Source: Chrysomallon squamiferum (taxonomy: Eukaryota; Animalia; Mollusca). Taken from it: a DNA stretch of 64,000 nt. The stretch covers positions 22,134,001 through 22,198,000 of the forward strand of contig CM022673.1 of the NCBI GenBank assembly GCA_012295275.1. Direction: 5' to 3'. The position numbers and the translations under genes were made by a program. Shown piece after piece: positions 10,708-36,017 of the stretch; positions within the stretch are counted from its first letter, which is position 1, and every line of letters begins with the position of its first letter. Under the pieces are notes generated by a model. It made no database searches, was not told where the DNA came from, and saw only the letters and a program-made list of their open reading frames with translations.

Positions 10708-11700
10708 TTTTAGATTCCGTGTTTGATTTACTGTTTCGTACTGTTTCAGTGTGTCTGGCGATGAACACCGACGCACACTGTGGTAGTAAATGTTGTTGTC
10801 ATTCCCACCACAGCAGCAGCGTCAGCATCAAACACAAAAGTCACCACAGTCTCAACGGCGGCTTTGGTTTTGCTCTAATCGGAAAATAAATACATTTCAG
10901 ACAAGTACGTATAAAAATGATTAACATTCAACATAATGGAATCAGTTTGGCAATAGGAATTTACCTGGTTACCGCAGAGTTAAATTCTTCAATTCTTTAT
11001 TAACAATGAATTAATCTACAATACAAATATAAATGAAACTGGAATGGAAAAGCATATGTAAAGAAACAGATGTGTGCGTGTGAGTATGTGTACGTGTGTG
11101 TGTCTGTGTATATGTATGTTATGTAAATGCGAAATAGGTATCGATACTTTCAGGTTGATTATGCACACAAGCAGCACTGAATATAAATGTGACATCTGAT
11201 TATTATTTATCTTTTCTTTTCAGCCTGAATATCTGTTACGAAGTGAAACTGTGATGTGGTGTTGGTAATATGTATTAAAATAATAATAAAATAAGATCTA
11301 TTAAGAATATTGACAACGAGGTGCAGTAATTTTTTTAAATGCCAAAGTATTATATAAAGAACCGAAAAAAAAAAAAGAAAAAAAAAACAGTGAGAAAAAG
11401 CAATCAAAAATCTACACAAAACAAAATAACCCCACCCCCAAAAAAGAAGAAAAAAGAAAAGAAAAACAGTAAGTGCGAAATAGTTCAAAAAGTGTATTAA
11501 TAAATAAAACTATTAAAATACATATTAATGTGTCCTTTTCGTTTTCATTTAACCACAAATAATAATAAAAATAAAATAAAATAAAATAAAATAAATACAA
11601 AACAAAAGAAAAAGAAAAAGAAAAAGAAAAAGAAAGAAAGAATGAAAAATAATATATGGGCGAGTTGTCTGTGCTTCAGTCCAACGCTTTTTAAAATTTT
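10708..11700 (+). repeat. ~1 kb inverted duplication; partner copy at about 29335-30342
   Basis: Near-identical reverse complement. The ORF track also shows the same spurious translations (NENEKDTLICILIVLF; HITNTTSQFHFVTDIQAEKKR) on opposite strands. Confidence 0.92.
10750..10889 (+). pseudogene. Orphan inverted copy of exon 2 (plus downstream 3'UTR exon) of the peptide gene at 30161-30707; no signal-peptide exon found
   Basis: 10750-10889 is the exact reverse complement of 30300-30161 (CLAMNTDAHCGSKCCCHSHHSSSVSIKHKSHHSLNGGFGFALIGK*). The acceptor tttcag is intact. Homology starts inside intron 1, and no ATG plus phase-1 donor exon was found upstream on the + strand. Confidence 0.75.
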
Positions 11701-11713
11701 ATTATTATTATTA

Positions 11714-11744
<31 letters not shown>

Positions 11745-11942
11745 CATCATATGGCTGCTCTTTTAATTTTGTTCTTCTTGATTTTTTTTTTTTTTCTTGA
11801 GAAGAAGAAAAGGATTTACGAACGTTTTAAAATGTCTAGAGCATAATTATTTTGATGAACAATGTATATCACAACTATCCTGTATTTACAGAAATGTTAT
11901 TGTTGTATATTTTAAACAGCACCAGAACAAGATCGAGACCTG

Positions 11943-12041
<99 letters not shown>

Positions 12042-33111: not shown

Positions 33112-33597
33112 TTACTTCCCAGCCAGTCCCGCCAACCCAAATCCAAAACCTCCCCCATACGCGCTACTGGAACTTTTGTGCTTGACGCACGTGCTGCTGC
33201 TGTGGTGGCTATGACAACAGCATTTACTACCACAGTGGGCCTCTGTCAACATCAGTTTACAGCCTGAATAAAATAATGATAATAATAATAAATAAATACA
33301 TTTTAAAATTAAGGAATAAATGTATTTAGAGATAACATAAATGATTTAACGCTATAAAATAATAATTCAATTAATAAAATAAAATAAACAAAATAAATAA
33401 TAAAAAATAAAAATTATCAATATAACAAAATATATACTTATAGAAAATAAAGAAACAAGTAAATAAATAAATACACAAACAAACGAACAAATAAACAGAT
33501 AAATAGATAAACAAACAAACAAACAAACAAATAAATAAATAACGAAATGGTAAATTAACTCACTGAGAACCAGAAGAAGAACAACAAAGAATTTCAT
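33112..33597 (-). CDS. Secreted Cys/His-rich peptide F: MKFFVVLLLVLSCKLMLTEA/HCGSKCCCHSHHSSSTCVKHKSSSSAYGGGFGFGLAGLAGK*. Coding exons 33597-33564 and 33263-33112; 3'UTR exon from 32885
   Basis: Phase-1 intron A|gtgagt...attcag|GC. TATAAAA at 33689-33695 (minus). Donor TAG|gtatgt 15 nt after the stop. Confidence 0.88.
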
Positions 33598-34928
33598 GTT
33601 TGATGTAAAATAAATATTAGTTTTTGGAGAGGTAGATGATTTGGTTTTCTTGATTTTTTTTAATGATTTAACCACTGCACGCCTTCTTTTTTATACAAAC
33701 GCTTTGATTGCATGACGCTCCTTTGTGGTTAAAGCATCAGTGGGAGATCTTTGATGTCAAAAACACGATGTCATACTGCGTGTTAAAACAAACATTCTCA
33801 CAGAGTGGAAGACACCTAGCAAAAAGTAATATAATGAATGCATCAAAATTAAAACAAAGTAAATGAATAACATAAATAAAGCAATAAAATAAATTTATGC
33901 AGTAATATTTCAAATTATAAACTACATTGTTCCTTCCCCCAAAATATGAAATTTTTGAAAAATATTTCTCGTCTCATTTTCGTAGTTATTATAATGTACA
34001 TCATATGTACATACATACATATATATTTACACACACATACACATAAGATAATATATTATTATTTTTATTATTTCTTTTCTTTTTTCTTCTTTTTTTTATG
34101 ATTAACGAAATCCATTTTATTTTGTCATATTTTCGGTTTCGGACGAACTTTAACGATTTAAAATCTTTTAATAATAAAAACTTTAGTTTTCTTCTTCTTA
34201 TTTAAAATTAGATATTAAATCATTCTTTTTTATTTCCTTCTTTATTTTTTAAGCTATTTATTTCGTTTATTTATATAACTATATAATTAAATGGTTTTGG
34301 TTAAATTAAAAATTTATGTAAACGCTGTTTTTCTTCTCTTCTTTTTCATGCTTTTTTTTTTTTTTTTTTATGAAATATAAAAAGGAATCTAACATCTCAA
34401 ATTATGGTTTTGTGCTATTCACGCATTTCAGATAAAAATTAAAAATAGAAAATAATAATAAATTCTAAACATATAAATACAAAATAATATTATCTTAGCC
34501 TTTTTAAATGTTTTCATATGATTGAGAAAAATATGTAGAGAAAGAGAACAAATTCATTTTAAAACAACAACAAATAAATAAATAAATAAATTCCATCTTA
34601 CTATGTACGAATGATATTTATTTAATTATTTCATTTTACTTTTTTTTTTTTTTTTTTATTATTTCATTTTCTTTAATCACTTATTTTTACACCATGTTGA
34701 AGTTCTGGTGTCTACATGCCGAGTTAATCATCTTAAAACAAACACAACTTCATGTTTTCAATGACGAAGACGTGCTATATATGGGTTTACTGCTGTGACT
34801 CTGTTATTTTCTGTTTGATGTTTTAATGAAAATAAACACATAAAGATCACTATAATGGATCATTTCTTTTATAACTGTTGTATATAAACAGGCAATACAA
34901 ATAGTTTTCAATGTTAAAGAAGTCAGCA

Positions 34929-35398
34929 ATGAATGTTTTCTTCAGTCTTAAGCTGGGATTTGTGCTGCTGTGTAAGTGCATCATTTTATTTCAATTTATT
35001 TATTTAATAATAAATAAATAAATAAATAAATAAATACAAAAATATAAAAATTAAACAAGGAAACCAAAAAATGATTTAAAAAAATAAATAATAAAAAAGG
35101 AAAATACTTCACATTTCTTAGTAATAAAAAAAAGTGGAAATTTTTAGGCAAAACTACATACAGCCAGAGAACTGGAAACCAATTAAACAAAAATCTGTTG
35201 TTGTTTATTATTAATTTCAGTTAATTTTATTCTTTTATTTCATTTTATTTATTATTATTAATTTTGTTGTTGTTGTTGTTGTTAATTGCAGCTAGCATAT
35301 TAGCAACGACAACGGCATCATGTGGAAGTAGTTGCTGTTGTCACTCTTCACACCACAGCTCTACATCTGTAAGTCAAGCAAGCAAAAGCTGGAAATAG
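34929..35398 (+). CDS. Secreted Cys/His-rich peptide G (short, opposite strand): MNVFFSLKLGFVLLSSILATTTA/SCGSSCCCHSSHHSSTSVSQASKSWK*. Exons 34929-34971 and 35292-35398; exon 3 from 35772
   Basis: TATATAAA at 34881. Phase-1 intron T|gtaagt...ttgcag|CT. CGSxCCCHxxHHSS motif. Donor GAG|gtatat at 35412, acceptor tttcag at 35771, AATAAA at 35819. The C-terminus depends on which donor is used. Confidence 0.8.
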
Positions 35399-36017
35399 TG
35401 TTAAAAACGAGGTATATAGTGAAATATTTTAACTGCTAAAAAGGATTACCAAGAACCCAGTCTTTTGATATTTAAAATAAATAAAAAGTCGTTATTACAA
35501 AGATTCTAAGATACATTTATACTTGGGGGAGGAATTAATAATAATAAAAAAGCATAAATATAAAAATAATTAAATATAAACAATATCTACATTCACAATA
35601 CACACATACAGCGATATCTAGATTCAGACGGCTTGAAATATACTCTTGGATTTCCTTAGACTATTCTGTTGCAACCAGTCGCAATAACAAGTATTTATTT
35701 ATTTATTATTTTGTTGTTGTAATTCTGATTATTTCTTTCTTTATATTAAAGGTTTAATCTTTTTCTTTCAGATGAAGAGTTACGGATATGGGTTAAACAT
35801 GTACCATTAACTGTAAACAATAAAATTTTATCTAGTTTTGTATTGCTGGTTGTCTTCTTTTTGTTACATATTTGTTACAATGTTTTTAAGTATTTGGTTA
35901 GTTAGTTTTTATTTACATCACAAATAATACAGGAAACACAAGATTGACATCCAGTAGTCTTACTTCGTATGTAAGATGAAATTATTAAAACAGTCAAGTA
36001 TTTTTGTACAAGTACTT

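Follow-up and report, generated by a model that had tools for sequence, protein, structure and literature searches.

Secreted Cys-rich peptides encoded by orphan genes occur in the symbiotic organs of aphids and legumes, where they are called BCR and NCR peptides, respectively (PMC3574423, PMC6594739). Clavanins and related peptides, which are rich in His, Gly and Phe, permeabilise membranes at low pH (PMC5198042), and the Gly/His peptide shepherin is antifungal in the form of Zn-induced fibrils (PMC10698721). How chemosymbiotic animals control and harvest their bacteria is an open question. In the available text of the peltospirid holobiont papers, receptors and lysosomes are named, and the word 'antimicrobial' occurs in neither paper (PMC7895826, PMC9381778). 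In the snail Chrysomallon squamiferum, the oesophageal gland houses bacteriocytes with sulfur-oxidising endosymbionts (PMC7142155). A stretch of 64,000 nucleotides (nt) of the genome of this snail (contig CM022673.1, positions 22,134,001 to 22,198,000; hereafter the window) carries a cluster of small spliced genes for Cys/His-rich peptides. Eight family loci, designated A to H, lie between a membrane dipeptidase gene and RIF1. Six of them are intact genes (B, C, E, F, G and H), one is a pseudogene (D) and one is a duplicate of exon 2 (A). The family is new by sequence and possibly works in the manner of the BCR and NCR peptides.

The gene structures were obtained by a six-frame motif scan combined with GT-AG splicing. 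The first-pass annotation, made from the DNA letters only, had placed six start codons in this region, and all six are present where it put them (B, 14164; C, 18162; E, 27257; F, 30707; G, 33597; H, 34929). The spliced anatomy that it proposed also stands: in all six genes, a first coding exon of 34-43 nt is followed by a canonical GT-AG phase-1 intron of 300-674 nt and by an open frame downstream. The exons are as follows.

14128..14164, minus strand: gene B exon 1, coding sequence for the signal peptide, 37 nt, phase 1.
13430..13672, minus strand: gene B exon 2, stop codon at 13464-13466; almost certainly the match of the published model CsqKR_Scaf31_17.19.
11760..11939, minus strand: gene B candidate non-coding exon 3, rule-based, 3' end approximate.
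18120..18162, minus strand: gene C exon 1, coding sequence, 43 nt, three in-frame ATGs.
17291..17445, minus strand: gene C exon 2, stop codon at 17294-17296.
27224..27257, minus strand: gene E exon 1, coding sequence, 34 nt.
26472..26627, minus strand: gene E exon 2, stop codon at 26482-26484; candidate exon 3 from 26054.
30668..30707, minus strand: gene F exon 1, coding sequence, 40 nt.
30146..30300, minus strand: gene F exon 2, stop codon at 30161-30163; candidate exon 3 from 29816.
33564..33597, minus strand: gene G exon 1, coding sequence, 34 nt.
33097..33263, minus strand: gene G exon 2, stop codon at 33112-33114; candidate exon 3 from 32885.
34929..34971, plus strand: gene H exon 1, coding sequence, 43 nt.
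35292..35411, plus strand: gene H exon 2, stop codon at 35396-35398; alternative donor after 35368.
35772..35830, plus strand: gene H candidate exon 3, non-coding, or coding for 12 residues to 35810 via the inner donor.

The precursors consist of 81 (B), 64 (C), 59 (E), 59 (F), 61 (G) and 49 (H) amino acids (aa). The range of 49-69 aa given by the first-pass annotation is thus too narrow, because gene B with its 12-Cys insert reaches 81 aa. A TATA-like word is found 48-118 nt upstream in each of the six genes, in DNA of about 30% GC for which the background frequency of such words was not computed. ATG-started phase-1 exons of 31-46 nt that end in a GTRAG donor occur 16 times on both strands of the whole window, and 8 of these 16 rows represent the six family genes (C is counted three times). 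A hydropathy of at least 3.4 is reached in six exon rows, all of them from the family; F (2.5) and H (2.2) are not separated from the background. The count of eight loci is borne out by an exon-2 DNA profile. This profile was built from six loci, leaving out A and D, and matches all eight at E ≤ 4e-10. The next match has an E value of 0.57, and the best match in the reversed window, used as a null, has one of 0.37, indicating that there is no further copy in the window.

A donor-like site (score of at least 6 of 9; background 0.25 per window) is located 3-34 nt past the stop codon in all eight loci, of which A duplicates F. A downstream acceptor with a poly(A) signal is found by rule in 7 of 8, with no background computed for it. 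Because of these two features, a third, non-coding exon, which the first-pass annotation had missed, is likely. The spliced joint is not seen in the contigs of four runs, which cover only 30000-33263 (gene F and exon 2 of G) and say nothing either way. In gene H, an inner GTAAGT donor after 35368 allows an in-frame splice to 35772-35810, giving a protein of 52 aa with a different tail. Alternative splicing of H is therefore possible: exon 3 would supply a different C-terminus of 12 residues that include Gly and Tyr. Two repeats lie within introns of the cluster. A CA-type microsatellite of 1.4 kb at 11940-13410 occupies the candidate second intron of B, and a tandem repeat at 26650-27020 in the first intron of E leaves long frames open and provides in-frame ATGs ahead of E exon 2.

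The pattern of substitutions shows that the six genes are coding and under purifying selection. The proportion of synonymous differences exceeds that of nonsynonymous differences in every one of the 15 pairs (Fisher p ≤ 0.018; the pairs are not independent). For the 7 pairs without saturation at synonymous sites, a pairwise counting method gives a ratio of nonsynonymous to synonymous rates of 0.11-0.36; the remaining 8 are saturated. Between the mature regions of C and G there are 4 differences at first, 3 at second and 19 at third codon positions. A tree of the exon-2 sequences had supports of 9-79 and was not used.

The proposal that these genes encode a spliced, probably secreted and probably amidated family is upheld by signal-like N-termini, G-K or G-R ends and open spliced frames. 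The N-terminus is signal-like in all six precursors by a heuristic measure: the hydrophobic 9-mer has a Kyte-Doolittle value of 2.6-3.9, Ala is placed at position -1 in five of six, and F and H are weaker. Predicted cleavage after Ala leaves His as the first residue in B, C, F and G. G-K or G-R precedes the stop codon in five of the six, predicting a C-terminal amide. Gene B carries a GCEGG repeat at residues 20-30 of its product, and its mature part has 65 aa with 12 Cys and 8 His and ends in GFGK. The mature parts of C (41 aa, 6 Cys, 5 His, ending in GGK), F (37 aa, 4 Cys, 7 His, ending in IGK) and G (41 aa, 5 Cys, 5 His, ending in AGK) are shorter, and H has only 26 aa with 4 Cys and no Gly tail. 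The consensus proposed earlier, a CGSK-containing head followed by KHK and a Gly-rich tail with a terminal GK, fits C, F and G fully. B, E and H depart from it: B has neither CGSK nor KHK, E is acidic and divergent, with 2 Cys in its mature part and a GR end, and H lacks the Gly tail and GK. Cys in two columns, His in one and Ser in one are the only invariant positions of the alignment.

In the heads of B, C, F and G, 4-12 Cys and 5-8 His are present in numbers that fit no single disulfide pattern. CC, CxC or CxxC motifs number 8 in B and 1-3 in the others, and no metallothionein match is found in Pfam. Each mature peptide has 0-1 Tyr plus Trp, and Phe or Trp is present in all six. Dibasic KK, KR, RR or RK sites are absent from five of the six mature parts, and the three KK of B sit inside its Cys-rich insert. 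The tail is hydrophobic with a small-xxx-small spacing, and its helical moment is 0.04-0.16 in the five Gly-tailed members. With textbook pKa values, the computed charge between pH 7.4 and pH 5 rises from +1.1 to +9.1 in B, from +4.0 to +8.5 in C and G, from +4.1 to +10.4 in F, from +1.9 to +4.7 in H and from -2.1 to +0.3 in E. AlphaFold models have predicted local distance difference test (pLDDT) values of 55.5 and 59.0, giving no confident fold and no confident helix in G. Metal binding, amidation and self-assembly may be read from these features.

Homologues were sought with the exon-2 parts, never with whole precursors. An alignment of five exon-2 peptides searched against 5.8 billion proteins gave 737 candidates, limited to lengths of 24-86, and none at E ≤ 10. 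A hidden Markov model (HMM) searched against 1.84 billion representatives gave no accepted homologue, and its sole match, P0009 (E 3e-5), was rejected as a tandem-repeat frame whose score is summed from short matches. None of the six is significant in Pfam, the Protein Data Bank (PDB) gives no match, and the ESM Atlas gives no usable match for G and B, which is not evidence of novelty. In metagenome contigs, none of 128 pattern matches was confirmed, and 8 exact 24-base matches represent three distinct sequences, none of which reaches beyond the pattern. The statement of the first-pass annotation that the peptides belong to no recognised family thus agrees with Pfam, PDB and the two large protein sets. 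Because such sets under-represent short spliced genes of eukaryotes, these null results mean absence from the databases, not from other snails. The family motifs brought up one irrelevant phage match in the literature, and no description of the family was found in a search that covered few subscription papers.

The published annotation has one model in this place. In the published order, 'dipeptidase 1-like' (CsqKR_Scaf31_17.11) is directly followed by CsqKR_Scaf31_17.19 (hereafter 17.19) and then by a gene with apple-snail and scallop orthologues, which could not be confirmed as RIF1 (PMC7142155). The model 17.19 is listed as 'novel', without an apple-snail or scallop orthologue, and its only listed repeat is GCEGG with 2.2 copies at residues 69-79; 'GCEG' occurs a single time in the genome-wide repeat table (PMC7142155). 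The same table lists CsqKR_Scaf168_0.17 and CsqKR_Scaf190_0.11, proteins with Cys/His-rich repeats of 40 residues (PMC7142155). The N-terminus of 17.19 is longer than that of gene B by 49 residues. When the two exons of C, cut at a GT just before the C stop codon, are joined to B exon 2, GCEGG falls at residue 69. Four two-exon joins, one of them using E, likewise give residue 69, and so the 5' part of 17.19 is not fixed. Supported in three ways, by gene order, by the repeat unit and by the position of the repeat, the locus is almost certainly that of 17.19, with the published protein itself standing outside this comparison. The model 17.19 is probably a fusion of two family genes, and the published annotation would then have one probably fused model for six genes. 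The claim that the family had largely been missed by annotation therefore holds, with one published model between the dipeptidase and the next conserved gene. In the parts of the paper that were available, 17.19 is a single unannotated row at the same place and with the same GCEGG repeat, and the family, its structure and its function are not mentioned (PMC7142155).

The expression data are those of this single model, which comprises B exon 2 with or without exons of C or E. The mean count of 17.19 is 90.9 in the oesophageal gland versus 0.27 in mantle, scale epithelium, gill and foot (fold change 230, false discovery rate 2e-20, five animals), and only eight of about 1,660 gland genes have a larger fold change (PMC7142155). 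It is likely that at least one member, the one matching B, is active almost only in the symbiont-housing organ. The same gland over-expresses five peptidoglycan-recognition proteins (PMC7142155) and lysosomal genes (PMC7895826).

These observations are tentatively explained, with a likelihood short of even, by metal-binding, acid-switched defence peptides that act on bacteria in the symbiont organ. A metal-binding defence peptide was the second option of the first-pass annotation and is preferred here. Signal cleavage would leave an N-terminal His in four of the six members, and the terminal G-K or G-R would be trimmed to an amide in five. As the table match implies, the oesophageal gland would transcribe B exon 2, with or without exons of C or E, whereas mantle, scale epithelium, gill and foot would not. 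The N-terminal His together with the CCCHxHH head may bind Cu or Zn. In an acidifying compartment, the histidines would raise the charge, and the uniformly hydrophobic Gly tail may pack or oligomerise in the bacterial membrane. The putative target is the endosymbiont while it is digested in lysosomes, presumably the way in which the host feeds on it. The action would be like that of the aphid BCR and legume NCR peptides, without membership of either family. A more specific form of this explanation is rather doubtful: the peptides would be host-made for symbiont control and harmless at neutral pH, and acid together with vent metal would switch on the culling of the sulfur-oxidising endosymbionts.

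Several points weigh against defence peptides in the symbiont organ. Expression is known for one model, and its level is low: 91 counts, compared with 2,262 for the dipeptidase (11.9 elsewhere; fold change 199) and 10^4-10^5 for the top gland genes (PMC7142155). The pattern of 17.19 mirrors that of the dipeptidase 4.7 kb downstream of B, and because of this same pattern at such a short distance, it could reflect a shared enhancer. The gland also encloses an intestinal loop, the lateral nerve cords and the statocysts (PMC4470333), so that 17.19 may be expressed in cells other than bacteriocytes. The amidating enzyme is not in the gland-enriched list of the available supplement (PMC7142155). The number of Cys in the mature parts varies from 2 to 12 and is odd in G; it is 12, 6, 2, 4, 5 and 4 in B, C, E, F, G and H, respectively, whereas BCR peptides have 6 or 8 Cys and NCR peptides 4 or 6 (PMC6594739). 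With the moments given above, the tails are not amphipathic helices, and in helical form they would probably not be long enough to cross a bilayer. B, to which the expression data are tied, carries little net charge at pH 7.4, E is acidic and H is tail-less. In each of 10 pairs, conservation is higher in the mature part (42-88%) than in the signal peptide (12-45%), and there is no sign of adaptive evolution of the kind reported for the nlp-29 cluster (PMC2453101). Furthermore, the near saturation of synonymous sites means that the family may predate the symbiosis, which Chrysomallon and Gigantopelta acquired independently (PMC7895826).

Among the other explanations, an unlikely one holds that the peptides are secreted, metallothionein-like chelators that buffer metal and sulfide in a vacuole or in the gland lumen, scavenging or delivering Zn, Cu or Fe without attacking membranes. 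The member tied to gland expression, B, is near-neutral and has 12 Cys with 8 CC, CxC or CxxC motifs. Cys counts that are variable and sometimes odd suit thiolate binding better than a single disulfide-bonded fold, no columns other than two of Cys, one of His and one of Ser are invariant, and the host is reported to buffer the environment of the symbionts (PMC9381778). However, there is no metallothionein match in Pfam, Cys residues in the secretory pathway are usually oxidised, a conserved hydrophobic amidated tail is unneeded for chelation, and the low expression fits a bulk chelator poorly.

Equally unlikely is a structural role, in which a beta-prone Ser/Val/His segment and a Gly/Phe/Leu tail would self-assemble into a matrix that is cross-linked by disulfides or metal in a cuticle; the gut lining, radula, operculum and larval or unsampled tissue are its candidate sites. 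The low-complexity modules, the purifying selection, the variable Cys number and the lack of a confident fold are consistent with such a matrix, and the expression data cover the B-matching model and not E to H. The peptides may resemble the His/Thr/Val and Gly/Leu modules of squid suckerins. However, counts of the matching model are close to nil in mantle, scale epithelium and foot, whereas a nearby mantle novelty reaches 167,356 counts, and Tyr and Trp are nearly absent from the peptides. For the B-matching member, these two observations argue against the shell- or mantle-type matrix peptide that the first-pass annotation had put first. A further, weak argument is that an annotation supported by transcripts from ten tissues gave one model here, which is unlikely for matrix genes abundantly expressed in those tissues (PMC7142155). 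The available supplements of the shell and sclerite proteome contain no match to the family motifs, the gene identifiers, RIF1 or the dipeptidase; their identifier scheme is unverified and nothing is concluded from this (PMC11871041).

Amidated neuro- or gut-signalling peptides from nerve cords or from the intestinal loop that the gland encloses are improbable. The G-K or G-R ends and the conserved mature sequence would suit such peptides, as would low counts from a rare cell type in an organ crossed by nerve cords and intestine, but five of the six mature parts have no dibasic site, CCC clusters are atypical, and no homologue was found in other molluscs, in which neuropeptides can usually be traced across the phylum. 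Just as improbable is an incidental gland signal, with the dipeptidase enhancer driving B or the model match being wrong and the real site and role elsewhere (for example in mucus, haemocytes or eggs): B and the dipeptidase are indeed 4.7 kb apart on the same strand with fold changes of 230 and 199, the identity of the model comes from gene order and from the unit and position of one repeat, and a contig from locus A shows unspliced or DNA-derived signal nearby, but B has its own TATA-like box, an intact structure and selection, and a three-way match to 17.19 is unlikely by chance.

The remaining family loci and the flanking genes are as follows.

10750..10889, plus strand: locus A, orphan exon-2 copy (coding part), identical to gene F exon 2.
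10700..11809, no strand assigned: recent inverted duplicate, about 1.1 kb, of 29225-30350 (acceptor, exon 2, second intron and 3' exon of F).
20392..20880, minus strand: pseudogene D, with a TATA box; its exon-1 remnant has no ATG and a donor after 20793, and its exon 2 starts at 20537 and carries two frameshifts.
2601..9418, minus strand: membrane dipeptidase (M19), directly downstream of B on the same strand.
37350..58743, minus strand: RIF1, limits approximate.

In its non-repeat part, the inverted duplicate has 6 mismatches in 625 aligned bases relative to its source. No first exon for locus A was found nearby with an exon-1 profile. Locus A is located some 1.3 kb upstream of where the dipeptidase begins, on the strand opposite to it, and reaches into the end of the candidate 3' exon region of B. 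A single unspliced 175-nt contig from the RNA library of run X2 covers it and could represent DNA carry-over or antisense transcription. The X2 contig crosses from the shared block into the own flank of A, which disfavours an assembly artefact. RIF1 shares 66% identity with its counterparts in Lottia and Batillaria, and the dipeptidase is closest to that of abalone (88% over one exon, 69% over eight), values that point to a gastropod other than abalone. Two tRNA-Phe(GAA) genes at 23342-23415 and 25604-25677 on the minus strand and a degraded third copy at 23739-23821 lie between D and E. Broken frames at about 21400-22900 on the plus strand, which have no Pfam match, resemble an endonuclease and reverse-transcriptase remnant of a long interspersed nuclear element. 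A 226-codon open frame at 62707-63387 on the minus strand consists of a 30-base tandem repeat with RNRNINSST-like units and has no Pfam match. Outside the window, the mantle 'novel' gene CsqKR_Scaf31_17.0 lies three genes beyond the dipeptidase and has a mean count of 167,356 in mantle versus 142 elsewhere (PMC7142155). It was considered as a family member and rejected, because in the published order two Shaw channel genes separate it from the dipeptidase, on the side away from the cluster. It is a strong shell-matrix candidate that is unrelated by position to the cluster.

The family does not belong to the BCR or NCR peptides, KRMP or shematrin, the metallothioneins or the nlp-29/caenacin peptides. 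Metallothioneins are cytosolic and have neither a signal peptide nor aromatic residues. In contrast, all six members have a signal-like N-terminus, and Phe or Trp is present throughout. Neuropeptide prohormones share the amidation signal (five of six), but the flanking dibasic sites are absent here in five of six. KRMP and shematrin share the signal peptide, a basic head, which is Lys/Cys-rich in B, and a Gly-rich tail; however, the family has no Gly/Tyr domain and no homology match to them, and the B-matching model is not expressed in mantle (PMC4498902). The nlp-29 and cnc genes of C. elegans likewise form a small tandem cluster for short, Gly-rich secreted peptides with a neuropeptide-like look, but they are Gly/Tyr-rich, infection-induced and adaptively evolving, whereas the peptides described here are Cys/His-headed, Tyr-poor and under purifying selection (PMC2453101). 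Clavanins and gaduscidins (PMC5198042) and shepherin (PMC10698721) share His pairs, Gly, Phe, a gain of charge at low pH and likely metal binding. However, they are without a Cys cluster, and clavanins are alpha-helical, whereas the tails described here have almost no helical hydrophobic moment.

According to the published view, this snail has few novel genes and the fewest in the gland (PMC7142155). An orphan family hidden behind one probably fused model in a well-studied genome bears on that view. If the structural or the chelator explanation were true, the family would still be a new metal-binding scaffold from a vent animal. Because the peptides are short and can be synthesised, and one member is likely gland-confined, the hypothesis of peptide effectors is directly testable. 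The aphid BCR and legume NCR peptides are likewise encoded by lineage-restricted orphan genes with a signal peptide and a short Cys-rich mature part, were partly missed by official annotation, and are confined in their expression to the symbiotic organ, which is seen here for one model at the organ level (PMC3574423, PMC6594739). No sequence similarity to them was found, and a His cluster, a Gly tail and an amidation signal are added here. Expression is low here and top-ranked in the BCR and NCR peptides, and location in the bacteriocyte and activity are putative here. If host-made symbiont control were true, the family would be a gastropod counterpart of the aphid BCR and legume NCR peptides, built on an unrelated scaffold of a His/Cys head and an amidated Gly tail.

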